Below, one piece after another: positions 23,676 through 50,669 of a stretch of 64,000 bases of DNA. The DNA is from Simkaniaceae bacterium (lineage in GTDB: Bacteria; Chlamydiota; Chlamydiia; Chlamydiales; Simkaniaceae), in the NCBI GenBank assembly GCA_050248615.1, contig JBFWSA010000001.1:36841-100840 (forward strand), read 5' to 3'. The translations under genes were made by a program, and so were the position numbers. The notes beneath the pieces were generated by a model. That model had not been told where the DNA came from, did no database searches, and was given only the letters and a program-made list of their open reading frames with translations. The stretch's first letter is position 1; each line of letters starts with the position of its first letter.

Positions 23676-25019
23676 ATGCGTACCCTTCCAAAAACGATTA
23701 GTCCTATTCTAGAAGCGATTAAAACACGTAACTATACAGTTGCAGTTGTTGGGTTGGGTTATGTGGGTCTCCCCCTTCTCATGGCCTTTCATGAACAAAA
23801 GTTCTCCGTCTTAGGGATTGACATCGATGCTAATAAAATCGACTCGATCCAAAATGGGTTCTCTTACTTGAAACATATCCCCGATACGGCGATTCAAAAC
23901 CTGCAAGAATCGGATCGGTGCAGGGTCACAACCGATTTTTCCTTAGCAAAAGATGCCGATGCCCTGCTCATTTGTGTCCCCACTCCTCTCTCTCGCCATC
24001 GCGAGCCCGACCTTTCCTACGTGGAAAAAACTGTCAAAGCCCTCTCTCCTCATATGAAAAAAGGGCAAATTCTCATCTTAGAATCAACGACCTATCCCGG
24101 AACAACCGAGGAAGTTGTCAAGCCAATCTGTGAAAAGATTTCGGGACTAAAATCTGGAAAAGATTTCTATCTCGCTTATAGCCCCGAAAGAGAAGATCCC
24201 GGGAACTTACAATTCGAAACAGCAACCATTCCCAAAGTGGTGGGTGCAGAAGGAGAGGAAGCCCTAGAAATCGCTACTCTCCTCTACTCTGAAGCTATCC
24301 AAAAAGTGGTCCCCGTCTCCAGCACAAGAACGGGGGAGGCTGTCAAGCTTCTCGAAAATATCTTTCGTTCGGTAAATATCGCTCTTGTCAATGAACTTAA
24401 AATCGTTTTCGACAAAATGGAGATTGATATCCATGAAGTGATCGAAGCAGCGAAGACGAAACCCTTCGGATACATGCCCTTTTATCCCGGACCTGGACTC
24501 GGCGGCCACTGTATCCCCATCGACCCTTTTTACCTCACATGGAAAGCGCGAGAACTGGGGATTCATACCCGTTTCATTGAGCTCGCAGGAGAGATCAACA
24601 CGGCCATGCCCCACTATGTGATCAAACGCACTATGGAGGCGCTCAACAGTCAGAAAAAAGCGGTAAACGGGAGTCGCATTTTGTGTATTGGCCTTGCCTA
24701 CAAACCCAACATCGGGGACTGTCGAGAGTCTCCTGCCTTTACAATTATGGACCTCCTCCAAGCCCAAGGAGCTGAAGTGGAATACTTTGACCCTTACATC
24801 CCCGAGGTCCCCCAAACACGCGAACATAAAAATTGGCACAAGAAAAAGTCGATCATTTGGGATAAAAAGGCTCTCTCTTCATTCGCTGCCGCTATTGTCA
24901 TTACCCATCATAGCAGTATCCCCTACCCAGACCTCCTCGCCGCCTGTCCCTTGATTATCGACACCCGTAATGCCTGCGCCGATTATCCTTCAAAACCTAG
25001 CCAAGTCTGGAAGTCATGA
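23676..25019 (+). CDS. Nucleotide-sugar dehydrogenase (UDP-GlcNAc 6-dehydrogenase, WbpA/WecC-like)
   Basis: GLGYVGLP, ICVPTP, LESTTYPGTT, SPEREDPG, GPGLGGHCIPIDP. Confidence 0.93.
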   Translation: MRTLPKTISPILEAIKTRNYTVAVVGLGYVGLPLLMAFHEQKFSVLGIDIDANKIDSIQNGFSYLKHIPDTAIQNLQESDRCRVTTDFSLAKDADALLICVPTPLSRHREPDLSYVEKTVKALSPHMKKGQILILESTTYPGTTEEVVKPICEKISGLKSGKDFYLAYSPEREDPGNLQFETATIPKVVGAEGEEALEIATLLYSEAIQKVVPVSSTRTGEAVKLLENIFRSVNIALVNELKIVFDKMEIDIHEVIEAAKTKPFGYMPFYPGPGLGGHCIPIDPFYLTWKARELGIHTRFIELAGEINTAMPHYVIKRTMEALNSQKKAVNGSRILCIGLAYKPNIGDCRESPAFTIMDLLQAQGAEVEYFDPYIPEVPQTREHKNWHKKKSIIWDKKALSSFAAAIVITHHSSIPYPDLLAACPLIIDTRNACADYPSKPSQVWKS

Positions 25020-26092
25020 AAATTCTCAATATCGTCGGAGCCCGTCCTAATTTCATGAAAATGGCTCCTCTCCTTGCAGCCATGCAGAAAAGCGTTAAAA
25101 TCACCCCCCTTCTATTGCATACAGGACAACACTACGACTACAAAATGTCCCAGGTGTTTTTCGATAACCTCGGACTCAAAGAGCCCGATATCTTTTTGGA
25201 GTGTGGAGGAGGATCTCACGCTACACAAACAGCCAAAATCATGCTCTCTTTTGAACCCATCCTTCTCAACAATCCGGTAGATCTAGTCGTTGTCGCAGGA
25301 GATGTCAACTCCACCCTTGCCTGCAGTTTAGTTGCCAGTAAACTCCACATCCCCCTTGCCCATATCGAGGCAGGACTCCGCAGTTTTGACCGAGAAATGC
25401 CCGAAGAAATTAACCGCATCGTGACCGATAGCCTCTCCGATTACCTCTTCACAACCTGTGAAGATGCCAATAAAAATCTCCTCAAAGAGGGATGTGCACC
25501 TGAGAAGATCCACTTTGTGGGTAATCTCATGATCGATACCCTTTGCCTGATGCTCCCAAAAGCGCGGGCCTCTTCGATTCATCAAGACCTCGCTTGCCCT
25601 CCGACCTATGGATTAATCACGCTCCACCGCCCTTCGAACGTTGATTCTCCCGCAACCTTTTCTGGGATTCTCGACTCACTTGAAGCCATCCAAAAAGATC
25701 TTCCCCTCATCTGGCCCCTCCATCCTCGCAGTAAAAGTGCGATTGAAAAACACGGGTTTGGAAAGAGAATCGCTTCTCTCGCTAACTTAAAAATCATCGA
25801 CCCTCTCGGTTATATTGACAATCTCTCGTTAATGGATAAAGCGCGCGTGGTCCTTACCGATTCGGGGGGAATTCAAGAAGAGACAACAGTGCTTAACGTT
25901 CCCTGCCTCACGCTCCGTAAAAATACCGAGCGTCCCATCACCATTACCGAAGGGACTAACCGCTTAGTCGGCGTTGAAACCCAAAACATCTTAGAAGGAT
26001 TCCATGCGATCGCAACCATCTCCCCTAAATCGCCCCCTCTTTGGGATGGGAAAACAGCCTCTCGAATCGTCAAAATCCTGGAGGCTTTATGA
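25016..26092 (+). CDS. wecB: UDP-N-acetylglucosamine 2-epimerase (non-hydrolysing)
   Basis: GARPNFMK, HTGQHYD, GDVNSTLA, HIEAGLRS, TDSGGIQEE. Confidence 0.95.
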   Translation: MKILNIVGARPNFMKMAPLLAAMQKSVKITPLLLHTGQHYDYKMSQVFFDNLGLKEPDIFLECGGGSHATQTAKIMLSFEPILLNNPVDLVVVAGDVNSTLACSLVASKLHIPLAHIEAGLRSFDREMPEEINRIVTDSLSDYLFTTCEDANKNLLKEGCAPEKIHFVGNLMIDTLCLMLPKARASSIHQDLACPPTYGLITLHRPSNVDSPATFSGILDSLEAIQKDLPLIWPLHPRSKSAIEKHGFGKRIASLANLKIIDPLGYIDNLSLMDKARVVLTDSGGIQEETTVLNVPCLTLRKNTERPITITEGTNRLVGVETQNILEGFHAIATISPKSPPLWDGKTASRIVKILEAL

Positions 26093-30089: not shown

Positions 30090-30095
30090 ATCACT

Positions 30096-32254: not shown

Positions 32255-32299
32255 CTAAGTATACTGATACACTACATTGATAAAAAAACTCTGAGTTAA

Positions 32300-33952
32300 A
32301 TGACCTCTTCCATAAACCCTATTATTGCAGTTACTTTGAACTTGAGAATTACAAATCGTCTTTCTGAAATCCAAAGATCTCTAGACATTTGTGACAAATA
32401 CAAAATAAAAATCACTCTAATGGTTGATAGTATGGAGGATAGAAAAGAGATTCTCCAACTGTTGAAGGAAGCTATCTTAAAAGGGCATGATGTCCAACCC
32501 CTTCTTTCCTCTCCAGCAAATGTTAAAAAAAGTAAAGAAACCCTAGAAAAGCTTTTAAAACCTCTAAACCCCCACTACCAAGTCGTTGCATGTCGTGTGG
32601 AACATGCCGCTAACCAATCATATAAAGACATTTACCAAGCCCTGGTCTCAGAAGGAATTTACTGTGATTCTTCTGTCGATGGAAAGTTTCCTTTTCTCTA
32701 TTCAATACATCAACCCTATTTTGCAAACCCCTATGCCCCTCAACTAAGAGCGCCTGCCTCAGAAAAAGAGATTGTCCAAATCCCTGTCTTTAATACTAGT
32801 TTAAAAAGCTATCTGAAGAAGCAAGCGAAAAAAAAAGGTAGGTCTCAGAAAAATGCATTTTTATCGAAAGGCGTTAGAAAACTTAGCAAATACTATTGCA
32901 AATTTGCTTTTCTTCGTAAAATGATTAATCCGATCATTCCCCAAAAATTCCTTTATTGTATCTGCGATTATGAACCCGAAGAATTAGTCAAACATCAATA
33001 CTTTGTGTTAGAAAATGATTTGTCTGATTTAGACACCTTAAAAGATTCTGCTACTTTCATAACTCTTTCTCAAATGGCTGAAATGGCACAACAAGAACTT
33101 TCAGCAACCCTGCGCAAAGATACCATAGAAGAAGCTGAATACCAAGTTGAAGGCTCTTACCAAGCTGTGATGGGTACAGATCGAAATCTTGCACAATCAG
33201 CCTATTTACAAAATTTAATCCCCTGGGACTGTGAATCGGTATTAGACTTTGGATGTGCTACTGGTTATTGGACAGATCGGATCGCAAAAATCTACCCTTG
33301 GATTTCTAAGATCATTGGTATAGATTTTGGTATAGATTTTATCAAAAAAGCCAATGATCTTTATCAAAATGAGCGGATCTCTTTTGTTCAAGGAAATTTT
33401 GAAGAGCTCCCTTTTCCAGATAAGAGCTTTGATTGTGTGTATGCAGATGCTACCCTAGAACATGCCTTTAATATTAATCACGCTCTTCAAGAAATTTATC
33501 GGGTGCTAAAAAAAAATGGATCTCTTATCGCGACGATTCCTAGCGATGCACGTAATCCTGAATGGTCAAACCCCTGCCATATTTGGAAAACTATTCCCGA
33601 AGAAACACGGAGACGACTTGAAGATAATGGATTTACCAATATCGAAATCGATGAGGTAAATATCTATAAAACTTTTTCTATGACTCCTTACCCTCCAGCC
33701 AATAGTCTGATGATGTTTATTCGTGCTAGGAAGGAAACCCCACTTGCAAGAGTTCAGCATGCAACTGAGTGGATCTCCAAAATAGATACCACCAAGCTTG
33801 TACCAACCGCAGGAACCTCTGATCCCGTAATAATTTTAAAAAAATTATTAAAACGTGAAGGCTACTGTGTTATCCAGAAAAAAAATACCATTCAACTTCT
33901 GCTTAATGAAAAAACACATACCTTTGAACCCCTAGACTTTCAAAATGGATAA
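32300..33952 (+). CDS. Fusion of degenerate polysaccharide-deacetylase-like domain and class I methyltransferase
   Basis: N-terminal ITLMVD, GHDVQ, CDSSV; C-terminal VLDFGCATG, LPFPDKSFDCV, LEH. Confidence 0.7.
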   Translation: MTSSINPIIAVTLNLRITNRLSEIQRSLDICDKYKIKITLMVDSMEDRKEILQLLKEAILKGHDVQPLLSSPANVKKSKETLEKLLKPLNPHYQVVACRVEHAANQSYKDIYQALVSEGIYCDSSVDGKFPFLYSIHQPYFANPYAPQLRAPASEKEIVQIPVFNTSLKSYLKKQAKKKGRSQKNAFLSKGVRKLSKYYCKFAFLRKMINPIIPQKFLYCICDYEPEELVKHQYFVLENDLSDLDTLKDSATFITLSQMAEMAQQELSATLRKDTIEEAEYQVEGSYQAVMGTDRNLAQSAYLQNLIPWDCESVLDFGCATGYWTDRIAKIYPWISKIIGIDFGIDFIKKANDLYQNERISFVQGNFEELPFPDKSFDCVYADATLEHAFNINHALQEIYRVLKKNGSLIATIPSDARNPEWSNPCHIWKTIPEETRRRLEDNGFTNIEIDEVNIYKTFSMTPYPPANSLMMFIRARKETPLARVQHATEWISKIDTTKLVPTAGTSDPVIILKKLLKREGYCVIQKKNTIQLLLNEKTHTFEPLDFQNG

Positions 33953-34733
33953 AATAGATCAGAAGACTCTTCTTCAGAAGCTAACTGATCGCGACCGTTT
34001 ATTTTATCATTATTCCAAACGGTGCGATGAAATCGACTCCGGCTATGAAGAGAAACTCGCTTGGTTTCATGATTATGCCCTTAATGCTTTTGCAAAATAT
34101 ATTCATCCACGCAATCACTCAGATAAAGTCTTAGATATCGGTTGCAGTCGTGGTTACTTGTTATCTGTTCTTTATGCCTGGGGGTTTAAGAACTTAACAG
34201 GTATCGACCTTTCTCCTAACGATATCTCACATGCAAAAGTCTTAGCACCTGAGATCTCCTTTGAAAAGGATGATGCTTTTGAATATCTTGCAAAACATCA
34301 AAATACTTTTGATATTATCATTTCGAAAGCTGTTTTAGAACATATTGAGAAAAAAAGAGTTTTTGAGTTTATTGAAAAATGCTATGAAGCTTTAACACCT
34401 AAAGGCATTCTCATTCTTGATGTTCCTAACATGGATTGGCTTTTTGCTTCCCATGAACGTTATATGGATTTCACTCATGAAGTGGGCTTTACTATTATTT
34501 CATTAAAACAGATAATGGGAGAAGTTTTTTCAAAGGTTGAAACGCATCCCATCGATTTTTATACCTTTCAAGATAAAAAAGTTCCTTTCTATAAAAAAGC
34601 TAAGCGCAATCTAACGCGCATTTTTGCACGTAAACTGTTAAACACTCTCTTTGAATGGGCAGATCCTCAAGGATGTAGTACATGCAATCCTATTTGGCAA
34701 CGCAGTATCCTTGGGGTAGGATATAAGTTATGA
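33945..34733 (+). CDS. Class I SAM-dependent methyltransferase
   Basis: VLDIGCSRG, AVLEHI, DVPN, YMDFTHE. Confidence 0.88.
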   Translation: MDKIDQKTLLQKLTDRDRLFYHYSKRCDEIDSGYEEKLAWFHDYALNAFAKYIHPRNHSDKVLDIGCSRGYLLSVLYAWGFKNLTGIDLSPNDISHAKVLAPEISFEKDDAFEYLAKHQNTFDIIISKAVLEHIEKKRVFEFIEKCYEALTPKGILILDVPNMDWLFASHERYMDFTHEVGFTIISLKQIMGEVFSKVETHPIDFYTFQDKKVPFYKKAKRNLTRIFARKLLNTLFEWADPQGCSTCNPIWQRSILGVGYKL

Positions 34734-36322
34734 CAAATCAAACACTCGTCATTAAGGAAAGTGTTCTTTCTCAAGAGGATAAAGAAAATTTCATTCATAT
34801 TGACTATTCTACTTTAAAAACGTGGTGTAAATCCGGAAAAATTTTTCAAAAATTTCGTAATTATCACGATGTTATTTTTTATTTAGATACAAGTCCCCTA
34901 TATCGACGTGCTGTTATTGTAGGACTGCTCGGCTATTTTCTCAAAAAAAAACGTGTAACAATTAAATATGCTAACCAAATAGAAGTAAAAGTTACTCTCC
35001 TATTTCTTTTTAAACGCTTAAGCATTTTTGTAAGAGATCTTCTATCAAAACCATTTTTTTTAAATAATCTTAATAAAAAAATAGAACATCTGCATCAAAA
35101 TATTCCTACCATGCAAACACTTCCTACAACAGGTTCTCCTTATTACATAAGAACTGATTTTCATTTTATGCTCCTAGCCGGAGGTTCTGTAGGACACATT
35201 GCAGGAGTTCTAAATAACTTAGAAAATGAAGGGAATGCACCCCCTTTACTCTTCAGTTGTACAAAGATCCCTACAGTGAAAAAAGGAATCCCCTGTCATC
35301 TGATTTTACCGGATGACAAATTTCTAGATTTTAATAATTTCCCCAACTTTGCTTTTTCTTCAACCTACACGAAAAAAGTGGGGCATTGGATGGAAAAACA
35401 TCCCCCTCGATTTATCTATGAGCGCTTCAGTTGTGGTAGTATTTCTGGAGTGGAGCTCTCTCAAAAATATCATATTCCTCTCATATTAGAATATAATGGA
35501 TCTGAAGTTTGGGTAAGCAAACATTGGGGCAAAAAATTTCATCACGAAAATATTTTCCTAGCAATTGAAGATCTCAACTTGCGGGGCGCACAACTGATTG
35601 TCGTTGTAAGTGCTCCCTTAAAAGAGCAATTAGTGGAGCGGGGAATAGATCCCCACAAAATCCTGGTGAACCCCAATGGAGTGGATCCCCAAAAATACAG
35701 CCCTGAGATTGATGGATCTCCTAAAAGAGAAGAGCTAAAAGTAAAAGATAAAATCGTGATTGGATTTATCGGCACTTTTGGGAAATGGCATGGGGCTGAG
35801 GTGCTCACGGAGTGTTTTGGGAAACTCTTAGACGAGTATAGAGAAAAGATCCACCTCCTCATGATTGGAGATGGGATCATGATGTCAGAGGTTACTCAGA
35901 AGATTCATGATTACCAGATGGAGAGCTATGTGACCTTGATGGGGATGATCCCTCAATCAGAGGCACCCGAGTATTTAGCTGCCTGCGATATTTTAGCCTC
36001 TCCCCATGTTCCCAATAGCGATGGCTCCAAGTTTTTTGGCTCTCCGACAAAGCTATTCGAATACATGGCGATGGGGAAAGGGATTGTTGCTTCAGATCTC
36101 GATCAAATTGGAGAAGTCCTTGAGCATAAGAAAACAGCTTACCTTGTCAAGCCAGGTGATCAAGAGGCTTTAGTCCAGGGACTCAAAGTGCTAATCGAGG
36201 ATCCCGACTTGCGCCAAACTTTGGGGATAAACGCCCGAGAAGAAGTCGTTAAAAATTACACCTGGAAACAACATACCCATAAAATCCTAGAAAAACTCAA
36301 AGAGCTATGTCCCTCCGCCTGA
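34730..36322 (+). CDS. GT4-family glycosyltransferase
   Basis: GGSVGH, PNGVD, GFIGTFGKWHG, SPTKLFEYMAMG. Confidence 0.92.
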   Translation: MTNQTLVIKESVLSQEDKENFIHIDYSTLKTWCKSGKIFQKFRNYHDVIFYLDTSPLYRRAVIVGLLGYFLKKKRVTIKYANQIEVKVTLLFLFKRLSIFVRDLLSKPFFLNNLNKKIEHLHQNIPTMQTLPTTGSPYYIRTDFHFMLLAGGSVGHIAGVLNNLENEGNAPPLLFSCTKIPTVKKGIPCHLILPDDKFLDFNNFPNFAFSSTYTKKVGHWMEKHPPRFIYERFSCGSISGVELSQKYHIPLILEYNGSEVWVSKHWGKKFHHENIFLAIEDLNLRGAQLIVVVSAPLKEQLVERGIDPHKILVNPNGVDPQKYSPEIDGSPKREELKVKDKIVIGFIGTFGKWHGAEVLTECFGKLLDEYREKIHLLMIGDGIMMSEVTQKIHDYQMESYVTLMGMIPQSEAPEYLAACDILASPHVPNSDGSKFFGSPTKLFEYMAMGKGIVASDLDQIGEVLEHKKTAYLVKPGDQEALVQGLKVLIEDPDLRQTLGINAREEVVKNYTWKQHTHKILEKLKELCPSA

Positions 36323-38178
36323 TCAAACGCGCGCTGCGCCTCCCTCCCCATATTGTCTTGTTGAAACTCCTCCGTATGGCGAAAAACCGTTGGCACCAGT
36401 ATCGTCGGGAACAAAGAGACCAAAAATACCCTACCTATTCTTCCTATCAGGGGAAGCTTAGTTCTTTCGTCACTCTTCCCCATCACGTTCCTCAATATAC
36501 GAAAGATCTCCTAAGTCACTCCTTTGATTTACTCGGGAGTGGTCCTGTAGAGGTCAAATATGGGCTCAAAGCCCCAGGTCTTGAAGGACATGTCTACCCG
36601 AGTCAAGCCGCTTTACCTCTAAACAACCGGATCAACCCCAAAAATCTAGACTATGCGGAAAAAGTGTGGAGTCATCTCGATCCCGATTATACTCCCCTGG
36701 ATTGGCAAATCGATTTTAAATCAGGATACCGCTGGGAGGAAAAAACACCCAGCCATAAAATTGCTTATGGGCACCTTCCCGGAGTCGATGTCAAAGTTCC
36801 CTGGGAGCTCGCACGCATGCAGCATCTCCCCCAACTCGCCTGGGCTTATGGAGAGACTAAAGAGGAAAAATATGTGCGGGAGTTTCAAAATCAAATCCTC
36901 GATTTCATTGCCACCAATCCTCCCCGCTTTGGTGTCAACTGGAGCTGCACCATGGATGTGGGCATCCGGATAGCAAATTGGCTGATCACTTATGATTTGA
37001 TGCAATGTTACGGAGCCTCTTTCTCACCAGAATTTGAAACCTTCTTCATTTCGAGTGTCTATGATCATGGGAAGCATATCATTCACCATTTAGAATGGAT
37101 GCCGACGTTCCGAAGCAATCATTACTTAGCCAATATTGCTGGACTCCTTTTTGTAGGAGCCTATCTAAGCGGCTGTGAAGAGTGGCTAGACTTCGCTATC
37201 GCTGAGTTTATCAAAGAAGTCCCTCTCCAGTTTCATCCAGATGGCTCTTCTTTTGAAGGGTCTACAAGTTACCACTGCCTCTCTGCACAAATCGTTGCTT
37301 ATACCTCGGCTTTAGCCATCTCCGTTAAAGGAGAGCGGTGTTTTCCTCAGGAGTATTATGAACAGCTCCATAAGATGGCCCTATTTGTCCAAGATATGAC
37401 TAAACCCAATGGGGCAGTTGTCCAAATCGGCGACCATGATAGTGGCTATCTCTTCCGCCTTTTCCCCCCTTACGATCAACACCTCAATCGACAACTCTTA
37501 ATCGATGAACTCCACTTCAAAAGTCTCTATCCCCACCCCTTTCCCCTCTGCAAAGAACCCTCACACACGTTCATCTCGGGGGATTTAACTCTATTAAAAG
37601 AGACCTTTCCTAAAACACAGATTGCCTTTCCTTATAAAAAAGAAAGGATCGATTGTAGGGCTTACCCCGATTTTGGAATGTATATCTATCGTAGTCCCCA
37701 TCTCTTTCTATCAGTACGCGTCGGATCGATTGGCCATTTGGGGCGAGGAGGTCATGCCCATAACGACCAACTCAGTGTTGAACTCGTCATCGATGGAAAA
37801 GAAATTGTCGTCGATCCAGGAACCTATCTCTATACACCGCTTCCGAAAAGGAGGAATGATTATCGCTCCGTCACAGCCCATTTCGCCCCCCAAATTTTGG
37901 GGAAAGAGCCGAGTGGGATTGAATCAGGAGTGTTTATCCTAGATAGAGATCCTAAAGGAAAATGCCTCCATTTTGATCGCCACACCTTTTTAGGGATGCA
38001 TACAGGTTATGGTTTCCCCGTCTATCGTTTGATTCAGTTAGGGGATCAGATTGTCATTACTGATTATTCTACTAAAGATCCCCTTGTTCCCCTCGAAAAG
38101 GTCCTCAAACAGGTACAACAGGTCCCCTTTTCTCCCGGTTATGGAATGATTAATTATGAAAATAACAATCATTGTTGA
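36307..38178 (+). CDS. Heparinase II/III-like (alginate lyase family) protein of polysaccharide loci
   Basis: KVPWELAR, NPPRFGVNW, NHYLAN, EGSTSYH, GHAHNDQLS, DPGTYLY. Confidence 0.88.
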   Translation: MSLRLIKRALRLPPHIVLLKLLRMAKNRWHQYRREQRDQKYPTYSSYQGKLSSFVTLPHHVPQYTKDLLSHSFDLLGSGPVEVKYGLKAPGLEGHVYPSQAALPLNNRINPKNLDYAEKVWSHLDPDYTPLDWQIDFKSGYRWEEKTPSHKIAYGHLPGVDVKVPWELARMQHLPQLAWAYGETKEEKYVREFQNQILDFIATNPPRFGVNWSCTMDVGIRIANWLITYDLMQCYGASFSPEFETFFISSVYDHGKHIIHHLEWMPTFRSNHYLANIAGLLFVGAYLSGCEEWLDFAIAEFIKEVPLQFHPDGSSFEGSTSYHCLSAQIVAYTSALAISVKGERCFPQEYYEQLHKMALFVQDMTKPNGAVVQIGDHDSGYLFRLFPPYDQHLNRQLLIDELHFKSLYPHPFPLCKEPSHTFISGDLTLLKETFPKTQIAFPYKKERIDCRAYPDFGMYIYRSPHLFLSVRVGSIGHLGRGGHAHNDQLSVELVIDGKEIVVDPGTYLYTPLPKRRNDYRSVTAHFAPQILGKEPSGIESGVFILDRDPKGKCLHFDRHTFLGMHTGYGFPVYRLIQLGDQIVITDYSTKDPLVPLEKVLKQVQQVPFSPGYGMINYENNNHC

Positions 38179-38821
38179 TGCTTTTCGTGCTTTTGCCACT
38201 GCATCATATGCATTAGAGAAAGACCCCCAAAATTATTACTTAACAAACTCTTGTGTATCTGTTTCTCAACTGGCCCAATCCGCTCATGATCCCCTACTTA
38301 TTGGAAAACCAGAAATCGGTTCTATACTTACCTACCACATTCCCAACTCCCCTACAAGAGTAAAGGAAACTCCTATTTTAGGAAGAGATGTGATCCATCG
38401 AACAGCAGCAGGCGCTTTAGGAATTTTAAAAGCAACCGATGCTGACCTGATCTTAGGTGCGAGTTTTGTAAATGCAGATGCAACTGCAGCCTATGTTCGC
38501 TTGTACAAAGGAGCCCAAGTAAAAATTGTTCCCATGGGACATGAGGGAACAACACCCTCATTTGAAGATGACCTCTGTGCAGAATATATTGATTCTCTCA
38601 TTAGAAATGAGTGGAAGGATCTAAGCCCATTTATCGACAAACTCAAAGATGGGCCTGGCAAGTATTTTTTTGGGGAAGATCAATGGCAATACCCCAAAGA
38701 AGACTTTGATTTGTGTATAAAAACAAGACGTTTTCCTTATGTTATTGTTGCAAAGATACAAGGAAACTACGCATGTTTAAAAAGGGTAGATGTTCAACTT
38801 CCTCAACCATATCAAGTATAA
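38156..38821 (+). CDS. ComB-like (2-phosphosulfolactate phosphatase family) phosphatase
   Basis: IIVDAFRAFAT, NSPT, HRTAAGA, ASFVNA, EDDLCA. Confidence 0.8.
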   Translation: MKITIIVDAFRAFATASYALEKDPQNYYLTNSCVSVSQLAQSAHDPLLIGKPEIGSILTYHIPNSPTRVKETPILGRDVIHRTAAGALGILKATDADLILGASFVNADATAAYVRLYKGAQVKIVPMGHEGTTPSFEDDLCAEYIDSLIRNEWKDLSPFIDKLKDGPGKYFFGEDQWQYPKEDFDLCIKTRRFPYVIVAKIQGNYACLKRVDVQLPQPYQV

Positions 38822-39461
38822 GATCCCGAATCCCACGACCTTTCCATTTAAGTGCATTAAGCTTTTGCTTTGTCATAGTATTCCAATCTTCACGACTAGT
38901 AATCTTCTTAATTTTGACCATATAATCAAAAACCGGAGTATTTAATGCAAAATGCATGGGATGAATCACAAGAACCTTAACTCCCTCTTGGAGAAGCCTT
39001 TTTCTTAATGAATCATCCACCTCAAGAGAATGCTTATGCCATAAATACCCCCCATCTTCCATAAAAATAGGAACTTCCAGAAATCCAAAACGATCTCTAA
39101 AAGGAGAAATAACTTCTAAATCACTACAAACGTTAGAGGAAATGCGCATTCCCGCTTCAGCCATGGCTTGTTTCGATTGATTACAGGTTTTAAAACGATG
39201 GCACCGAAACACAGGACAATTATGAGGAAGAGCCATCACATAATCTACAACTTGATTAATTGTAGATCCATGAGATGACTCCGAATCAAAGTAAGGATGC
39301 AGTCCTACCTCTAATTCACTTAAACAAGCTTCAACTCTAGAAGAGCGATGAGTAATAAAAACAGTAGGGTTGATCTTTCTCTTTTGAAAAAAATCTAACG
39401 TTTCTTCAATCGCCGGCTCTGGGGCCCAATCCAAATCTAATGTAATAATTAGCCCCTTCAT
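38742..39461 (-). CDS. Polysaccharide deacetylase-like protein (WbmS-like, NodB fold)
   Basis: ITLDLDWAP, TVFITH, EVGLHP, RCH, PIFMED, HPMH. Confidence 0.75.
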   Translation of the reverse strand: MKGLIITLDLDWAPEPAIEETLDFFQKRKINPTVFITHRSSRVEACLSELEVGLHPYFDSESSHGSTINQVVDYVMALPHNCPVFRCHRFKTCNQSKQAMAEAGMRISSNVCSDLEVISPFRDRFGFLEVPIFMEDGGYLWHKHSLEVDDSLRKRLLQEGVKVLVIHPMHFALNTPVFDYMVKIKKITSREDWNTMTKQKLNALKWKGRGIRDLILDMVEEVEHLPFLNMRSFLVSLQQ

Positions 39462-40381
39462 CGCAGGATCTCATGAAACTGTTTAAAACGCCTTTCATCA
39501 ATATCATGACGTAAAAAAAGCTCTTCCATAGAAGAATAACTGCGAAGATCCTCTGTCCGCTGACTCGTTGTCCAGGAATCCCCATCTCTCATGTATTGGG
39601 CATTCCCATAAGATAAAATGTTAAAAAGAGAGGCATTCATCTCTCTATTATCTTTAAAGTGCAATTGAGTACCTCTTCCATGCAAAGCTTCCCTTGCATG
39701 GGCGGCAAAAGAGTTAAACACCTCTTGAGAAATAGCATGCTTCTGATCTTTTTCTGGAGCATCGTAAGACATGTACTGGTAAAACTTCCACCGCGCTACT
39801 TTTCCTTTTGCTTCTTCAATTGCATTCAAAATAAAGCTCAATTCATTTGCCAAAGACATGTGATTTTTTTGGCTTATTACACTGTGAAGTTTCAATTCAA
39901 TACCACATTTCGTAAGACGGCTACAGACATGGACAATACGATCGAAATACTGATGAAATTTCTGATTATTTCTTCCAATAGAAGTCAAAAAGTTATCTTG
40001 GGCTCCATCAATTGTGACAGCAACCATATCGACAACACCTTCCATCTCAGAAATCACATTTTCATCTAAAAATGTGCCGTTGGTGTACACTTCGATTTCT
40101 AGATTTTTTGCTGGGTCTTTGCTTTTATACTGACGGATATGACGGAGGAGTTCAATAAATCCGCTAGGGGGACGTTTTCCAAAAATTACAACTTCTCCTC
40201 CTGACAGTGTTAATCTTCGAAAATTTAACCTCTCATACAGATGGGAAATAAATTCCTTCTTTGCCTCTAAATCAAGCTCTGCTCTGAGTTGATGAGACGC
40301 ATTTTCCAAGACACAATAGCTACAACTTAAATTACACCGATTTGTAACCATCCAGTACCCTTTATAATAAGTTTGCGACAA
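39458..40381 (-). CDS. Radical SAM protein with viperin (RSAD2)-like motifs
   Basis: CNLSCSYC, LTLSGGE, YTNG, VTIDG, LKLHSVISQKN, RWKFYQ, DNREMNAS. No C-terminal Cys-rich SPASM domain. Confidence 0.8.
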   Translation of the reverse strand: MSQTYYKGYWMVTNRCNLSCSYCVLENASHQLRAELDLEAKKEFISHLYERLNFRRLTLSGGEVVIFGKRPPSGFIELLRHIRQYKSKDPAKNLEIEVYTNGTFLDENVISEMEGVVDMVAVTIDGAQDNFLTSIGRNNQKFHQYFDRIVHVCSRLTKCGIELKLHSVISQKNHMSLANELSFILNAIEEAKGKVARWKFYQYMSYDAPEKDQKHAISQEVFNSFAAHAREALHGRGTQLHFKDNREMNASLFNILSYGNAQYMRDGDSWTTSQRTEDLRSYSSMEELFLRHDIDERRFKQFHEILR

Positions 40382-40391
40382 ATATTATCTC

Positions 40392-42026
40392 CTAAATAGT
40401 TGAAAATTCATTGATTAATACCCCATCAAAATAGCGAATAAGCTCCTTATCACTAGGTCCATCTCCAAAAACTTGCACTCTTCCAGACCAACGAATGTGA
40501 TTTAATAAACGATGAACGGCACGTAATTTAGAAGCTTCCCATGGCAAGATAAAGGTTTCACCTTCATAACGTTCTATCCGATGGCCCATAAGTAATTGAG
40601 AAGTGTCTCTACAAACTACCTGTAAAATTTGACCATCATATTCTATCAATCTATAGTCTGAAATAATTTTGCTAAGAGCTGCAACCTGATCCGACAGCAA
40701 TGGAGTAACCCACAAAGTTTTTCCTTCACCATCCGATACTACCCCCCCACTATAACTTATGATCCAATCTACCTGAAGACCGTAGGCAGCTATTTTTTTT
40801 AAAATGTCTTCAACGCCTCTTGCTGTACAAATCACTCGAAAGGGAAATCTTTTAAAAGAATCAAAGGATCTTTTAGTTCTTTCTTCATCATATTTATGGT
40901 AAAGAGTTCCATCAAAATCACTGATTGCTAGCATTTCCTTACGAAAAATCTTTGCAAGTAAGAGTCGAGATAAAAAGCGTTCATTAAAAAGAAATCCAAT
41001 CTCAAGAGATTTTCGAGATAAACTCTCATAGCAAGAAATCATCGTTTCAATATGCAAAATCACCTCATCATCCTCATCAACAAAATGGATGTAAGGGGCA
41101 CCTTCTAAAAATTCAGCAGCAGCATTTCCAGCTCGCTTCACAATATTCGGAAGCCCAGCAGCTAACGTCTCAAAAATTGCCCTACCAAAAGTCTCACATT
41201 TAGCCATTGATAAATGGAAGTGCTTGTCGTTTAAATAAATATAAAGGTGCTCATGAGAGACATAACCAAGAAAATGAACAGAATCTTGTAAATTCAAAAA
41301 CCTTACTTCTTTGATAAGAGTTTTAAAATATTTTTGATCTTGGATAGGACCAATAAGAGCAAGAGTGCTCCCTAAAAAATGCTGGCGTAATTTTGCAAAA
41401 AGCCGAATTAAACCTATCGTATCTTTTTGGGGTTTAATACTTCCTAGGGAACAAAATCGAATCGGCTCTTGAAGTGAACGTAGATGAGGGTTTAAAGCAG
41501 TTGTTTCTACTCCACGTGGGACAACATAAATGGATTCTTCAGGAACTGAATATTCTTTTAAGAGTTGCTCTTTTTCGAAATAACTCGGTGTAAGAATATT
41601 TCTGGCATTTGCCAAGACATTTTGTTCTCTTTCAAAATATTGATCAGGAACATTTTCACCAGAGAGTCTATAGGAAGGAGTTAAAAACATCGGAAACGTC
41701 CACACTTCTTTATCTGGGCTTAAGGGAAAATTGACTTGCCCAAATTGCATCGAGATATGCGCAAAAATAATATGGGTAAACTCTTTTTCTACTTCTTTGA
41801 CTTTTTCTCCAATAAAATCAGCATTAGTGAGACGTCTGATAAAACGATTCGAGGAATTATTGGGATAGTGAAAATGCCATCGGACACTCTCCTCTCTTTC
41901 ACCTCCAAATTGCATAATGCTTAAGGAAGATTTCAACTCGCGTCTTAGAGTACTCACCAAACGAGCACCTCCATCACGTTGTGCCATATCAGGACTGCAT
42001 TTTTCAGTTACAAGAAGCACTTTCAC
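40392..42026 (-). CDS. GT4 glycosyltransferase fused to a HAD-IIB (Cof/SPP-like) phosphatase; probable GTG start at 42026
   Basis: VVPRGV, LGSIKPQK, ETFGRAIFE (EX7E); HAD motifs SDFDGTL, CTAR, SKL, FGDGPSD. Confidence 0.85.
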   Translation of the reverse strand: MKVLLVTEKCSPDMAQRDGGARLVSTLRRELKSSLSIMQFGGEREESVRWHFHYPNNSSNRFIRRLTNADFIGEKVKEVEKEFTHIIFAHISMQFGQVNFPLSPDKEVWTFPMFLTPSYRLSGENVPDQYFEREQNVLANARNILTPSYFEKEQLLKEYSVPEESIYVVPRGVETTALNPHLRSLQEPIRFCSLGSIKPQKDTIGLIRLFAKLRQHFLGSTLALIGPIQDQKYFKTLIKEVRFLNLQDSVHFLGYVSHEHLYIYLNDKHFHLSMAKCETFGRAIFETLAAGLPNIVKRAGNAAAEFLEGAPYIHFVDEDDEVILHIETMISCYESLSRKSLEIGFLFNERFLSRLLLAKIFRKEMLAISDFDGTLYHKYDEERTKRSFDSFKRFPFRVICTARGVEDILKKIAAYGLQVDWIISYSGGVVSDGEGKTLWVTPLLSDQVAALSKIISDYRLIEYDGQILQVVCRDTSQLLMGHRIERYEGETFILPWEASKLRAVHRLLNHIRWSGRVQVFGDGPSDKELIRYFDGVLINEFSTI

Positions 42027-43095
42027 GTCTAAACAAATCCTTGTATTGAGCAAAAATATGGCTCCAACAGTAAGTAGGATCGAATTTCCCCTTACTAGGC
42101 AGGTTTTGAAGTGTTTGAGCAATCACTTTTACTATTTGCTCTTCTGGAAAAAGATCAACAAGTATTCCCTTATCACCCTTCACAATTTCTGGTAAAGCTC
42201 CACTATTTCCAGCAATCACAAAAGTCCCAGCAGTCAAAGCTTCTAGAATTGAACGCCCCATTCCTTCCGAATGAATATAACGCCCCCCAGGAACTGATGT
42301 AAGAACATCTCCACTTAGTTGCATATAGACATCTGCGTTAGCAATCTCCTGGCAAGTTTTCTGATTATTTAATACCCCAAGAAATGTGACACTTCCCAAA
42401 AGATTAATTTCTTGTGCAAAAGCTTTCACTTCATCCAGCAACGGTCCGTCACCTGCTAATCTCACATTTAATGAAAAACCTAGTTTTACAAGCTCCTTTA
42501 TTATCCGGAGAAAAAGTTTATGATTTTTGTAGGGAACAAAACGAGCTGCGGAAAAGATGCGTAGCGGAGAACTCACCTTTTTTTTTCCTGATTTTAAAGC
42601 CTCGCTATTGACTCCTCCAACAGATCGAAAAAAAGAACAAGTAATGCCTAAATCACGTAGGCGACTTTCTGTATATACTGAATTTGTAATGAGTACATCT
42701 ATCGATTGATTAAGTACTTTAACCCAATAACGCTGTCTTAAAAAATGATCCAAAATATGGTTCTTGACTAAGGGAGCTTTTAAGATTTCATTTCCCCCTG
42801 TCCTATAAAGGAATAATGCATTAGGAAATTGATTTCTGATTTCCTCTAGTTCTTCAATCCAGCGCCCGCTATTAAAAAAAACAATCTCAGGATTAAAATG
42901 ATGATAGTTGATTGCCTCTCCCGTTTCTTTAAATACAAGGGTATCTCTTCCATCTTTATCTTTAGAAACCACATCTAATAATGGAAACTGTAAGTGATCT
43001 TTAAAATAATCGATAAAATACCCTCCATGCATCTCCATTCCTCCTGAAAGGGGAGGCAAACGATCTGCAAAAAATAAAATCCCTCTTTTCTTCAT
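42004..43095 (-). CDS. GT4-family glycosyltransferase
   Basis: PPLSGGME, AARFVPYKN, AGDGP, EGMGRSILE (EX7E), GALPEIV. Confidence 0.9.
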   Translation of the reverse strand: MKKRGILFFADRLPPLSGGMEMHGGYFIDYFKDHLQFPLLDVVSKDKDGRDTLVFKETGEAINYHHFNPEIVFFNSGRWIEELEEIRNQFPNALFLYRTGGNEILKAPLVKNHILDHFLRQRYWVKVLNQSIDVLITNSVYTESRLRDLGITCSFFRSVGGVNSEALKSGKKKVSSPLRIFSAARFVPYKNHKLFLRIIKELVKLGFSLNVRLAGDGPLLDEVKAFAQEINLLGSVTFLGVLNNQKTCQEIANADVYMQLSGDVLTSVPGGRYIHSEGMGRSILEALTAGTFVIAGNSGALPEIVKGDKGILVDLFPEEQIVKVIAQTLQNLPSKGKFDPTYCWSHIFAQYKDLFRRESASCN

Positions 43096-43143: not shown

Positions 43144-44973
43144 TTATTTTGTCATGCACTTAGATTGCACTGAAGGTAAGAACCCTCCTATCTGCGCATC
43201 CCAAAGAGACTTATAATGTCCATTCTTATTAAGGAGGTCTTCATGAGAACCATCTTCAATAATCTTTCCATTATCAAAAACTAAAATCCGATCCATATTC
43301 AAAAGAGTTGAAAGGCGGTGTGCAATGATGAGTGTTGTTTTTTCTTTCATCACCTCAAACAAAGTCTCTTTAATGGCTTTTTCTGTGACCGCATCTAATT
43401 GAGATGTTGCTTCATCAAGTATCAGCAGGGGAGCATTTTTTAGTAAAACTCTTGCAATAGCTACTCGCTGCCTTTCTCCTCCTGACAACTTCACACCCTG
43501 TTCCCCAATAAGCGAATGATACCCTCTTGGGAGTTGGAGAGCAAACTCATGTACATGTGCTTTTTTAGCTGCTTCAATCACTTCCTCATCTGAAGCACTC
43601 ACTCTCCCAAAGCGAATATTATCCATGAGTGTTCTGTGAAATAGGGAAGGATTTTGTGGAATCAGACCGATACAAGAGCGAAGCGTATTTTGATCAACAG
43701 ATTGAATATTTTGCCCGTCAACTAAAATCTGTCCATGAGTGACATCATAAAGACGCAAAAGCAAATTGATAAATGTCGACTTCCCACTACCCGAGTACCC
43801 CACTACCCCCACTTTCTGACCAGAGTGGATCGTCAGAGACTTATTAATAAAAAAAGGCCTATCAGGAGTATAGTGAAAACCTACCCGATCAAAAACAATT
43901 TTCCCAGCTTTTACTTTAAGTGGAGGAGCGTTTTTTTTATCAACAACTTCTACAGGTGAAAAAATAACCTTTAAAGAATGACGGCACTTTCCCCAAGCTT
44001 CATTTAGTTGATCGATCAGCTCAGTACCACTCCAAACATTCTCTGTGACATACAAGGTTGAACCTAAAATAAAAGCAAAGTCTCCAACCGTTATTAAATC
44101 AGAGATTTTAAAACGAATTAAAAAATAAATAATAAATCCAACAAGACAGGTAATAGAAAACCCCTGAAAAAAATAGAACTTAATTAAGAATCTCTCTTTT
44201 TTTTGAAACATTTCCGTCATCTGATTTAATGATTTTTTAATAAACGTTCCTTCAAAAACTCTCCTTACAAACAGCTTTACACTAGAAAAATTTGTAATAC
44301 TATCCACCACTCTTCCCGCAACATGTGATTGAGCTGTGGCCAGATCATTAGCTAAGTTTGAAATTTTTTTAGAAAATCTTAAACTCGTTAAAACAAAACA
44401 CAACGTCCAAATGAGTAGAGCCATAGAAAAAATAGGATGAATACAATACATCGTAATTAAGGCCGCTATTAACTGAGCTGCAGACCTTATCAACCGAATC
44501 GATAGATTACTTCCAATCCGCTCAAAATTTTCAGCCATAATCATGATATTATTCGCGATCGCTCCTCCAAGCGTCTCTTGAAAAAAGCGTTCTGATTGAT
44601 TATGAACCCGATCAAACAAACTTTGAATAAGATGATTCTTGATCACTGGAACTATTCTAAGATTAATGTAATTAATGACTCTCCAACAGATGTTATGCAT
44701 CTCAAAATTCATCACGACAAATATAGAAAATGCTAAAACAATTTTATTATTAATTGGCGAATCATTTAAAACATCTATTAAAATCTTAGTAAAAAAAGCA
44801 TTCAATAATCCATATATGCCTACAATTGATGCACATAGAGTTAAGGCTATAACTGATAACTTATAAGGTTTATAGAAACTCCAAAAAACCTTCCCTATAG
44901 AAGAAGGAGGTTCTTCAGCTAAAAAGTGAAATGATTTGACGGCTTCGCTCTTTCCAATCATGCTTCTCTGCAA
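43144..44973 (-). CDS. ABC exporter, fused TMD and ATPase (type IV, MsbA/Atm1-like); start uncertain (ATG 44961 likely)
   Basis: 6 TM helices; GYSGSGKST, LSGGERQR, LILDEATS, IAHRLST. Confidence 0.93.
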   Translation of the reverse strand: MQRSMIGKSEAVKSFHFLAEEPPSSIGKVFWSFYKPYKLSVIALTLCASIVGIYGLLNAFFTKILIDVLNDSPINNKIVLAFSIFVVMNFEMHNICWRVINYINLRIVPVIKNHLIQSLFDRVHNQSERFFQETLGGAIANNIMIMAENFERIGSNLSIRLIRSAAQLIAALITMYCIHPIFSMALLIWTLCFVLTSLRFSKKISNLANDLATAQSHVAGRVVDSITNFSSVKLFVRRVFEGTFIKKSLNQMTEMFQKKERFLIKFYFFQGFSITCLVGFIIYFLIRFKISDLITVGDFAFILGSTLYVTENVWSGTELIDQLNEAWGKCRHSLKVIFSPVEVVDKKNAPPLKVKAGKIVFDRVGFHYTPDRPFFINKSLTIHSGQKVGVVGYSGSGKSTFINLLLRLYDVTHGQILVDGQNIQSVDQNTLRSCIGLIPQNPSLFHRTLMDNIRFGRVSASDEEVIEAAKKAHVHEFALQLPRGYHSLIGEQGVKLSGGERQRVAIARVLLKNAPLLILDEATSQLDAVTEKAIKETLFEVMKEKTTLIIAHRLSTLLNMDRILVFDNGKIIEDGSHEDLLNKNGHYKSLWDAQIGGFLPSVQSKCMTK

Positions 44974-46036
44974 AAGACTTATAATCTCCAGTCGACTTTA
45001 AATCTTTTAATATATGGATAAATTCTTTTTTAGATGAGGCAAGATGTGCAGGGGATTTAAGATGTTCTAATTCATCCCATTTAGTGCTAACTACTGGAAT
45101 CCCACTTGCCATATATTCATAAAGCTTAAGAGGGTTGACCCGGTGAATCAATTCAGGATGCCCTTTTACATCAAATGGAATTAGACCTACAGTTGCATGT
45201 TGCAAATAGGCGGGGATTTCCTTCCAAGACCGCACACCTAACAAATGTAAATTAGGCAAGTGTTGAAGTTTTTTCGTTTCATTTGGCCCAATAAGCACAA
45301 AATTCATATTAGGCAGCGCACGCGCTGCTGACATAAGGAGATCTGTATCAAACCATTCTCGAATAGCTCCTACATAAACTGCAATGGGACCTTTTAAGTT
45401 TTGATATTCTAGGGGGACTTCCCGAGAGTGAGCAAAATGTGAAAAATCTACACCGTTTGGTACAAACTCCATACGTTTGGGTTGGGCACTTTTTACATAC
45501 GTTTCAAGCCCTTTTGCTGTGTAAATAACACAATCAACCTCTCTCATAAGTTTTTCTTCTAAATGCTTTTTTGCAACAGCTGTTTGTTGAAAAGCCTTAT
45601 TATAATCAGCCAAACGGTAAATAGAATATTTTGGAGAAAGAGTTTTCATTAAAAATGCATGGGTTGGGCTATCAAAATAAAGTAAATCAGGTTTATCAAA
45701 GCCTTGATGTTTTAGTTTAGAAGTTAAAGATGGAAATGAAAAAATCTGCCAGTTTTTATGTAGCCACTCAGAACGCAAAAGAGGGTGATTATAAGGCGAA
45801 AGTAAACTTCCAGAAAGATATGTCCAAATATTTTCCTCTCTTATCCCTCCTTTACAATAAATTTCAAAACGGCTTTTTAACCCAGGTGTTTGTTTAAGAA
45901 GATGAGCTGGAGAGATGGGATCTGAAATAAACGCAACTTTCCACCCTTGACATGCAAAAGCTCTTGCAAAATGATGACTTCCCACCTGAAAAGGGCTTGT
46001 CCAATAGTTGGCACAAGCCATAACAATTTTTTTCAT
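44915..46036 (-). CDS. Glycosyltransferase (GT-B, GumK/TuaH-like)
   Basis: VPNGVD, YVGAIREWFD, GLIPF, NPLKLYEYMASG. Confidence 0.88.
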   Translation of the reverse strand: MKKIVMACANYWTSPFQVGSHHFARAFACQGWKVAFISDPISPAHLLKQTPGLKSRFEIYCKGGIREENIWTYLSGSLLSPYNHPLLRSEWLHKNWQIFSFPSLTSKLKHQGFDKPDLLYFDSPTHAFLMKTLSPKYSIYRLADYNKAFQQTAVAKKHLEEKLMREVDCVIYTAKGLETYVKSAQPKRMEFVPNGVDFSHFAHSREVPLEYQNLKGPIAVYVGAIREWFDTDLLMSAARALPNMNFVLIGPNETKKLQHLPNLHLLGVRSWKEIPAYLQHATVGLIPFDVKGHPELIHRVNPLKLYEYMASGIPVVSTKWDELEHLKSPAHLASSKKEFIHILKDLKSTGDYKSFAEKHDWKERSRQIISLFS

Positions 46037-46208: not shown

Positions 46209-47144
46209 TTACATGATGCTGATCACAAGTCCTTCCCAGTCGTGCTGCTGAATAAAAGAGTCGATCTTAGTTAAAGGAACCCCAGTCGCGTGGGCAAATC
46301 CAGGAGTATAGAGAAGTAAGTTGTTTTTTGAAGCTTCATGGGCCATGCGCTCTCCAAATCCTCCCACAAAGCTCTTCCACTTAAAGTGATTTCCTTTGAT
46401 TTTAGGAAGGCGTTTTTTAAGGTCCTGACGAGAGTTAATGTATCCCACAAAACGTAAAGGATGGACAGGGGCGATTTTATCTCCCAGTTTTTCCATCTCT
46501 TTTTTCTTAAGGAGCAATTCGAATACATTGAGATCGGCAAGTTTCTTAATGAGCTTCTCAATGTTCTTTTGATCTTCTGCATTGAGACGGAGATTATAAT
46601 ATAGCTGAGGATTTGGAGCGTTGCCCTCATTCACAGGAACCGGAGCCCGCATGACGCGCACTTCTGGAAGGGTCTCTCGACATAACGTTTGTATAAGCTG
46701 CGTCAGAGCTTCCGTCCCTAAAGAAAGATGCTCCCAGGCAATTTCTTCGGCTAGTCTCTGTTCATAAAGAGCCCCTGCATTTTCTAGTACATCTAAAAAA
46801 GCTTTCTTTGTCTGTGTAAATTCTTCTAAAGAGAGTCCCTCCTGGAGTTTCTGGGTAAATCTTGTATAGAAACTGGATAGCCCATCAAGATTTCCATCAA
46901 AAATGAACTTTCCCCCTCTATCTGGAGTAAAAACATAGGCAGTCTTTTCACCTTCAGTAACTTGAGAATGGATCGAGTAAAAAAGAAACTCTTGAAGCAG
47001 GGCCTCTTCCGGATCTTCAGAGGAGGATGAGGCAAGAGGATACTCTACTTTAACATCAGGAGAAGGCCATAGGGCATGAAGAGGTCCTCCTAAGAGGATC
47101 ATGAGAACCATAAGAAATTGCATCGCCAACCTTTTCATAACCAA
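46209..47144 (-). CDS. Exported hypothetical protein with a chlamydia-type C-terminal domain
   Basis: Signal peptide; C-terminal VHPLRF...FKWKSF motif recalled from chlamydial hypothetical proteins; RBS AAGGAG. Confidence 0.65.
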   Translation of the reverse strand: MVMKRLAMQFLMVLMILLGGPLHALWPSPDVKVEYPLASSSSEDPEEALLQEFLFYSIHSQVTEGEKTAYVFTPDRGGKFIFDGNLDGLSSFYTRFTQKLQEGLSLEEFTQTKKAFLDVLENAGALYEQRLAEEIAWEHLSLGTEALTQLIQTLCRETLPEVRVMRAPVPVNEGNAPNPQLYYNLRLNAEDQKNIEKLIKKLADLNVFELLLKKKEMEKLGDKIAPVHPLRFVGYINSRQDLKKRLPKIKGNHFKWKSFVGGFGERMAHEASKNNLLLYTPGFAHATGVPLTKIDSFIQQHDWEGLVISIM

Positions 47145-50569: not shown

Positions 50570-50669
50570 ATACTCACCCAATCCTTCCCTAATGTGCATG
50601 ACACGTTTAGGACTACCATATATACTATCCTTTTGTTACTTTAAGAATGACCTTTCTGGAAAGAAAAAA

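Follow-up and report, generated by a model that had tools for sequence, protein, structure and literature searches.

A viperin-like radical SAM enzyme from a sister family of the viperins, encoded in a conserved glycan-type cassette, is probably a sugar-tailoring enzyme

[quoted passage not shown] The radical SAM enzyme resembles viperin, the immune protein that converts nucleoside triphosphates (NTPs) into 3'-deoxy-3',4'-didehydro-NTPs (ddhNTPs). The new analysis indicates that it belongs to an uncharacterized sister family of the viperins, and that it is probably a sugar-tailoring radical enzyme that acts on an anionic amino-sugar intermediate within a horizontally mobile cassette, rather than an antiviral ddhNTP synthase.

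The open reading frame (ORF) of 307 residues that an earlier note on this DNA had singled out as a viperin-like enzyme is real and lies on the minus strand. It begins after a 10-nt gap behind the stop of the upstream GT4/HAD gene, its N-terminus aligns with the M-S-x-x-Y-Y-K-G-Y-W-M start of its homologues, and its stop overlaps the ATG of the WbmS-like gene by 4 nt, as ATGA. The cluster motif CxxxCxxC (C16/C20/C23) and the GGE motif (residues 61-63) are invariant in 37 of 37 family members. No further cysteine is conserved among these 37 proteins, so the SPASM/twitch cluster is absent from the family, as the note had held; in the AlphaFold2 model, the protein ends with two helices. The sequence motifs on which the note had built its comparison (YWMVT, CNLSCSYC, LTLSGGEV, YTNG, VTIDG, LKLHSVISQKN, RWKFYQ, ISQEVFNSF and DNREMNAS) are all found in the translation, but two of its pairings with viperin mask swaps at viperin-invariant positions: LKLHSV carries a histidine where viperin has N222, and MNAS-L carries a leucine where viperin has Y302.

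Viperins are the nearest relatives by profile, fold and tree. Pfam recognizes a generic Radical_SAM domain only (46 bits), and ESM Atlas returned only generic radical SAM clusters. The best NCBIfam match is NF038283 viperin_w_prok (E 1.6e-30, profile positions 6-276 of 281), with 106.3 bits against a curated cutoff of 180 bits; other members of the family score 89-104 bits against this model or give no match at E 1e-22. The TIGR04278 viperin model reaches 32 bits against a cutoff of 450 bits, and the next NCBIfam family after viperin is MoaA (TIGR02666), with 52.5 bits against a cutoff of 284. The PADLOC models for prokaryotic viperins (pVips; PDLC02903/4) score 106.7 and 97.6 bits, with a best E-value of 3.2e-31, and a profile of the 37 family members run against the PDB retrieves nine viperin or viperin-like chains first (3e-13 to 1.7e-10) and then MoaA (1.7e-9). 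In line with this, Foldseek comparison of the AlphaFold2 model (predicted local distance difference test 95, predicted template modelling (TM) score 0.92) places viperins at all of ranks 1-22 (TM 0.69-0.84 over ~300-314 alignment columns). VIA-align, run all-against-all on 48,161 chains, fits model residues 4-294 onto residues 72-337 of mouse viperin (5vsl) with Z 27.8 and a root-mean-square deviation of 2.1 Å over 255 residues. Judged from these models, the resemblance is far beyond chance and the likeness at the level of the fold, including the C-terminal extension, is solid.

The next VIA-align matches are SuiB (Z 21.6), SkfB (21.2), anSME (19.1), BlsE (18.8) and MoaA (18.0), with DesII (16.3) and AprD4 (12.6) further down. 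That SuiB, SkfB and anSME (Z 19-22) follow the viperins would suit an enzyme acting on a peptide, lipid or cofactor instead of a sugar, a role that the names AlbA, MoaA and AslB given to homologues by public sources also imply. Yet these names are automatic labels, the MoaA model stays far below its cutoff, the SPASM/twitch cysteines are unconserved, the related loci share no conserved precursor peptide or sulfatase gene, and viperin stands 6 Z units above the peptide maturases; a non-sugar substrate is thus very unlikely. MoaA, a GTP 3',8-cyclase, furthermore differs in its second, C-terminal [4Fe-4S] cluster, for which the family has no conserved C-terminal cysteine.

The earlier note had described the protein as a divergent viperin-like enzyme; the analysis places it outside the viperin family itself. 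A word-indexed search returned 341 homologues, the best 120 of which are 63-99% identical and 297-320 residues long. A full HMMER pass over 1.84 billion (1.84e9) representatives found 13 proteins below 1e-30, after which scores fall to 71 bits or less; full-length family representatives in this pass share 33-52% identity. Among the 150 hits listed, the 71 of 230-340 residues were scanned against NCBIfam: eight are family members or fragments, and in 51 of the 63 non-family hits the viperin model is best (24 above and 27 below its cutoff), the remaining 12 being SPASM-type or unassigned and none MoaA. Thirteen further hits of 341-385 residues include one viperin and again no MoaA (0 in 76 scanned), and the host genome holds no MoaA either. 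The main tree (IQ-TREE, LG+C20 with posterior mean site frequencies) comprises 64 rows, namely 14 family members, 22 pVips, 24 sub-threshold proteins and four SPASM outgroup sequences, and leaves out two truncated pVips and four long-branch rows of a first tree. In it, the family forms one clade (100/99) whose stem measures ~1.0 substitutions per site, the 22 pVips are likewise monophyletic (100/98) with the family rows outside, and the two clades are united, together with a bridging protein, P0148, at 93/96; two quick trees gave the identical topology. The profile score of 106 against 180 bits, the clade of its own, the family's own invariant residues at viperin-invariant positions and the missing C-terminal clamp described below all speak for a separate sister family. 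As such, the enzyme is a member of a well-defined, uncharacterized radical SAM family, a reading that is well supported though not proven.

The bridging protein P0148 (289 residues) branches between the family and the true pVips, grouping with the family at 97/89. It keeps the equivalents of viperin N222, the pVip glutamate and Y302, lacks those of N77 and H79 as well as an RGGxY tail, and has a Y-H motif at its end as the family does, so that it resembles an intermediate form.

What also separates the family from viperins is the substrate pocket, which was compared in an alignment of 37 family members with 22 pVips; the alignment to 5vsl (chain index + 44) served to verify the mouse numbering. 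Kept are the cluster cysteines, GGE, TNG, D182, G193-R194, K220 (in 36 of 37 members), W246-K247 and Q250. At other, viperin-invariant positions the family has residues of its own: viperin N77 is replaced by Y9, N122 by T58 and N222 by H166 in all 37 members, H79 by M11 and S180 by T123 in 36 of them, a glutamate conserved in 20 of 22 pVips by K243 (37/37), Y302 by leucine or methionine at position 252 (37/37), and the methionine or isoleucine at 304 by N254 (36/37). The viperin residues N77, H79, N122, N222 and Y302 are present in 20-22 of the 22 pVips. The position of R245 is variable in the family, with cysteine in 11, lysine in nine, arginine in seven and alanine in five of 37 members. Together with the fold comparisons, this alignment indicates that the enzyme still has viperin's fold, its [4Fe-4S]/SAM site and some of its anion-binding site, but a rebuilt substrate pocket.

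The C-terminus points in the same direction. A 2026 preprint on human viperin (10.64898/2026.09.10.750538) names K119, K219 and R244, together with R346 and Y350 of a C-terminal RxxxY clamp, as the phosphate-coordinating residues, and describes that the clamp binds the terminal phosphate and that its alanine mutant forms no ddhNTP at all. The 37 aligned family members have no such clamp: the arginine found in 21 of 22 pVips is a phenylalanine, tyrosine, histidine or leucine, and the region is modelled as two ordered helices with a near-invariant F/Y-H end. Additionally, the β8-loop positions that bind the base in viperins, according to the preprint of Shomar et al. (10.1101/2023.09.13.557418), are unconserved in the family. 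The earlier note had further suggested that, instead of a plain NTP, the enzyme may use an NDP-sugar or a glycosylated nucleotide; the first half of this fits the lost clamp, the rebuilt pocket and the separate clade, while the second names only one option for a substrate that may hold no nucleotide at all.

The gene neighborhood provides the other main line of evidence. Fourteen related loci from named genomes were compared by tblastn and ORF clustering. Ten are close, in four Chlamydiota metagenome-assembled genomes (MAGs), Candidatus Paracaedibacter symbiosus, a Rickettsia endosymbiont, a Rickettsiaceae MAG, a MAG labelled Rhizobium sp. Q54 and a Deltaproteobacteria MAG with two loci, and four are distant (33-37% identity), in three Clostridia MAGs and an Acholeplasma MAG. 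The genes for the radical SAM enzyme, the WbmS-like protein and the two GT4 enzymes are collinear in all 14 loci, which span four phyla-level groups; ORF clustering finds the WbmS-like gene after the radical SAM gene in 13 loci, and tblastn a match to it in all 14. All ten close loci have a ComB-like gene in this place. Genes like WecB and/or WecC are present in 11 loci and, for most related loci, are immediate neighbors of the cassette, and an MsbA-like exporter is near the cassette in seven of 15 loci, window included. Across the loci there is no conserved kinase, Wzx/Wzy or priming transferase, nor any other conserved gene, and no conserved reductase or aminotransferase. Among the distant loci, L012 has the HAD as a gene of its own and L014 has it joined to the other GT, which shows that the phosphatase is part of the pathway rather than a chance fusion.

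The Rho protein encoded in the window shares 84-88% identity with its counterparts in Chlamydiae MAGs, Simkania negevensis and Neptunochlamydia, which makes the host an environmental chlamydia close to the Simkaniaceae. The cassette is patchily distributed. Among the genome of the window (2.04 Mb, 96% complete) and 40 relatives, the radical SAM gene is found in this one genome only, and among 400 genomes sampled across the phylum it is found in seven, own included, from four families, with one more genome unscorable. Family proteins are strongly conserved, with 60-76% identity across phyla, and this identity, taken with the patchy occurrence, points to horizontal spread while strong purifying selection acts. 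Cassette GC tracks host GC, with values between 30% and 68%; the cassette of the window has 37.1% and the remainder 43.6%. Several loci show peculiarities of their own. In the Deltaproteobacteria MAG with two loci (L003 and L009), the second cassette copy (L009, 8050-12250) looks degraded, with 182 of 307 residues of the radical SAM enzyme and 132 of 239 of the WbmS-like protein matched in one piece (one segment being listed per pair). The flanks of the locus in the Rhizobium-labelled MAG (L002) have 42% GC, presumably unusually low for Rhizobium, which means that this MAG may be mislabelled or misbinned. In the Acholeplasma locus (L014, 5627-9667), a 1346-residue DUF4011/AAA_11/AAA_12/MTES_1575 helicase-nuclease sits directly upstream of the radical SAM gene, the only defense-like neighbor seen in any locus.

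In the window itself, PADLOC identified no defense system among the 18 neighbors of the radical SAM gene; its generic-domain matches there, of methyltransferase domains to mad2 and of an ABC ATPase to mad3, are not read as defense. The earlier observation that GTs and phosphatases flank the gene and that no nucleotide kinase does was correct, and its description of the setting as untypical of pVips is strongly supported by the glycan-type context conserved in 14 of 14 related loci. These findings bear on the possibility that the protein is a genuine divergent pVip, making a ddh-nucleotide chain terminator for antiviral defense next to bystander sugar genes. The pVip models are indeed its best profile matches (~1e-31), the viperin fold is present, the equivalents of R194, K220 and K247 are kept, and PADLOC includes a model for kinase-less viperins. 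Against this, the score of 106 bits misses the curated cutoff of 180, the protein falls outside the pVip clade, N77, H79, N222 and Y302 are lost along with the RxxxY clamp that is reportedly essential for all ddhNTP synthesis, identical non-defense neighbors recur in 14 of 14 loci of distant hosts, and PADLOC places no defense genes around the window gene. A genuine pVip is accordingly very unlikely.

The products of the neighboring genes (Table 1) outline the kind of pathway in which the enzyme may act. Owing to a 119-nt overlap of its ORF with the upstream GT, the GT4-HAD gene has an uncertain start. The WbmS-like protein has a CE4-type fold, matches PDB entry 3HFT (E 3.4e-12, TM 0.77) ahead of CE4 deacetylases including ArnD and HP0310, and keeps the invariant residues D9, D11, H55, H88, E135, D136, H167 and H170; with this full set of aspartate, histidine and glutamate residues in its sequence, it looks catalytically intact. 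3HFT is WbmS of the Bordetella O-antigen locus (PF22537), which is only ~21% identical to the neighbor gene product and for which a literature search, mostly returning unrelated acronyms, found no demonstrated activity. Solved-structure matches of the GTs and the ComB-like protein (MshA-type 7qsg at 2.4e-5 for GT-b, PimB' at 2.4e-6, TTHA1438 at 5e-6) are too weak for donors or acceptors to be named. Complex prediction of the radical SAM enzyme with the WbmS-like protein scored 0.01, which is uninformative either way, and a search among longer proteins, as weak evidence, found no fused forms of the enzyme.

Table 1 Features of the operon and neighboring genes in the window
Feature	Position	Strand	Remarks
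Viperin-like radical SAM enzyme	39458..40381	minus	307 aa, TTG start, protein P0001
Ribosome-binding site AGGAG	40382..40396	minus	8 nt 5' of the TTG; read directly from the sequence
WbmS-like CE4-superfamily hydrolase ("polysaccharide deacetylase", PF22537)	38742..39461	minus	239 aa
GT4 glycosyltransferase with C-terminal HAD (Hydrolase_3/Cof-type) phosphatase domain	40392..42122	minus	576 aa as listed
Second GT4 glycosyltransferase	42004..43095	minus	363 aa
MsbA-like ABC exporter	43144..44973	minus	accessory part
GumK_N/TuaH-like glycosyltransferase	44915..46036	minus	heads operon; window only, not in related loci
ComB-like protein (2-phosphosulfolactate phosphatase family, PF04029)	38156..38821	plus	convergent with operon
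NDP-sugar (UDP-ManNAc-type) dehydrogenase and WecB UDP-GlcNAc 2-epimerase	23676..26092	plus	second glycan cluster

Since the radical SAM enzyme always lies within a sugar-building cassette, its probable task is to modify a sugar, not to make antiviral nucleotides. In the proposed model, the cassette, with its WecB- and WecC-like enzymes, two GT4 enzymes, HAD phosphatase, radical SAM enzyme, WbmS-type hydrolase, ComB-like protein and often an MsbA-like exporter, would produce a small amino-sugar/uronic-acid glycoside or a short glycan via a phosphorylated intermediate. Specifically, UDP-N-acetylglucosamine (UDP-GlcNAc) would be converted into UDP-N-acetylmannosamine or its uronic acid (UDP-ManNAc(A)), and a phosphorylated acceptor would be glycosylated, dephosphorylated and deacetylated, with one radical step in addition. 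For this step, SAM would be reductively cleaved into a 5'-deoxyadenosyl radical, which would take a hydrogen from a ring carbon of an anionic sugar bearing a phosphate or carboxylate, for instance one derived from ManNAcA. The substrate radical may then either lose a neighboring hydroxyl, as in the viperin-type dehydration, to give an ene or deoxy sugar, or be re-quenched from the opposite face, resulting in epimerization. Subsequently, the product would pass to the translationally coupled CE4-like enzyme, probably for N-deacetylation, and the phosphatases would strip the phosphate. That about half of the viperin anion-binding residues are kept leads us to expect an anionic sugar substrate, possibly still nucleotide-linked, and the 4-nt overlap of the two genes suggests that their products catalyze consecutive steps.

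The nature of this step is best considered next to known sugar radical enzymes. BlsE, DesII and AprD4, all of which fall well below viperin in structural likeness and for which no sequence-level match is listed, suggest the proposed job, in which a radical takes hydrogen from a sugar ring in a setting of glycosyltransferases. The substrate of BlsE is a uronic acid glycoside (cytosylglucuronic acid), AprD4 carries an auxiliary-cluster domain, and the pathways of all three include a partner reductase or aminotransferase. Unlike in these pathways, such a partner is unconserved in the cassette loci; with no conserved enzyme to process a keto-sugar, an ene-forming dehydration or an epimerization would be favored as more economical than an AprD4/BlsE-like, keto-forming diol dehydratase. 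The order of the remaining steps, a GT4 reaction followed by a HAD phosphatase and a deacetylase, would by analogy resemble mycothiol and sucrose-phosphate synthesis. In mycothiol synthesis (MshA/MshA2/MshB) and in sucrose-phosphate synthase with its fused HAD domain, a GT4 enzyme works on a phosphorylated acceptor and a phosphatase and deacetylase logic follows; neither pathway is known to have a radical SAM step. The individual likenesses are weak (GT-b to MshA; the separate HAD of L012 to S6PP), and the cassette deacetylase is CE4/WbmS-like, in contrast to the LmbE-type enzyme of the mycothiol pathway.

BlsE also lends itself to another interpretation, in which the cassette makes a secreted nucleoside-type natural product and the radical SAM enzyme, in a BlsE-like manner, dehydrates the ribose or hexuronate of a nucleotide- or nucleoside-linked sugar, with the GTs, phosphatases and deacetylase building and trimming the compound and the ABC pump exporting it. 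The partly retained anion site, the clear structural match to BlsE, the exporter in seven of 15 loci and the joint occurrence of a uronic-acid-forming dehydrogenase, GTs and a radical SAM enzyme, as in the logic of blasticidin synthesis, are compatible with such a product, but the cassette holds no gene that handles nucleobases or nucleosides, the exporter is absent from half of the loci, and the β8-loop positions reported to bind the base in viperins are unconserved in the family, so that a nucleoside product appears unlikely.

Within the sugar-tailoring model, a more specific and tentative version, which we hold to be rather doubtful as it stands, is that the enzyme carries out viperin's reaction shifted up by one carbon, using a hexuronate (for example ManNAcA), and yields a 4-deoxy-4,5-unsaturated amino-uronic acid as the cap sugar of the seven-gene cassette. 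Here, hydrogen abstraction at C5 beside the ring oxygen would be followed by loss of the 4-OH and a one-electron reduction, while the retained lysine and arginine residues would grip the C6 carboxylate or a phosphate. Since a 4-deoxy-4,5-unsaturated sugar allows no extension at O4, its role would be that of a glycan cap or "chain terminator". The exchange of the cassette among unrelated intracellular bacteria (Chlamydiota, Rickettsiaceae and Paracaedibacter), in turn, suggests a role at the host interface.

Several points weigh against a sugar-tailoring role and the sister-family placement on which it builds. The chemistry is one that we infer. The pocket was read from a sequence alignment, in which N77, H79, N222 and Y302 are taken as pocket residues of viperin. 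Of the basic residues at viperin's phosphate site, three or four are still there, so that a nucleotide-containing substrate (an NDP-sugar or a nucleoside mono- or diphosphate) is conceivable. Gene neighborhood is circumstantial evidence; the WecB/WecC genes of the window lie 13 kb from the cassette, and in the Candidatus Algichlamydia locus (L001, 8908-10020) GT4-b, with 370 residues, lacks the HAD domain, unlike in the other close loci. Support of 93/96 for the sister relation to pVips falls short of the starred level. The tree rows were picked from the protein's own best hits, and the outgroup is SPASM and not MoaA, the usual outgroup of viperins (PMC10732462, PLoS Biol 2023, and the Shomar et al. 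preprint), so the placement is well supported rather than proven.

In common with viperins and pVips, the family has the partial-barrel radical SAM fold with a C-terminal extension, a similar length, no auxiliary cluster, the CxxxCxxC, GGE, TNG, DS, G-R, K-x-x-S-V and W-K-x-x-Q motifs and the nearest position in the tree; it differs in scores that stay under the curated cutoff, a long-stemmed clade separate from theirs, swapped pocket residues, ordered helices ending in F/Y-H in place of the RxxxY clamp and a glycan cassette instead of kinases or defense islands. Viperins have been treated as a family with a single immune function and MoaA as their nearest outgroup. The family described here sits between the two, as the closest sampled sister of true viperins, and is tied to a sugar-assembly cassette and not to defense. 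If the proposed chemistry is true, it would show a role of the viperin scaffold outside immunity and bear on the origin of the antiviral activity, and it would add a new sugar modification to environmental chlamydiae and rickettsial symbionts. For annotation, the match of pVip profiles at ~1e-31 means that defense-annotation pipelines may label members as viperins, and public records call them AlbA, MoaA or AslB; automatic annotation is thus unreliable in both directions. No published description of the family or the cassette was found in the literature within reach, to which subscription journals and preprint supplements do not belong; the family is taken to be new, and it may have been described there.

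Further features of the window surround the operon. The second glycan cluster (23676-38178, plus strand) encodes, besides the NDP-sugar dehydrogenase and WecB, a 719-residue ADH/GFO-IDH-MocA fusion, an AsnB-type amidotransferase, three SAM methyltransferases, a Wzx-like flippase, a GT4 enzyme and a heparinase II/III-like protein. GC content is 36-38% at 30-36 kb, against 43-49% upstream (8-30 kb), and the window contains no tRNA as an integration mark. Two ORFs beside the glycan genes, at 46209-47144 (minus strand, 311 residues) and 22318-23649 (plus strand, 443 residues), have no Pfam match (E 1e-3 / 1e-4). Downstream of the cassette, the minus strand encodes a pentapeptide-repeat protein of 158 residues (50123-50599) and an RsbU-like SpoIIE phosphatase with a HAMP domain (52620-54407).

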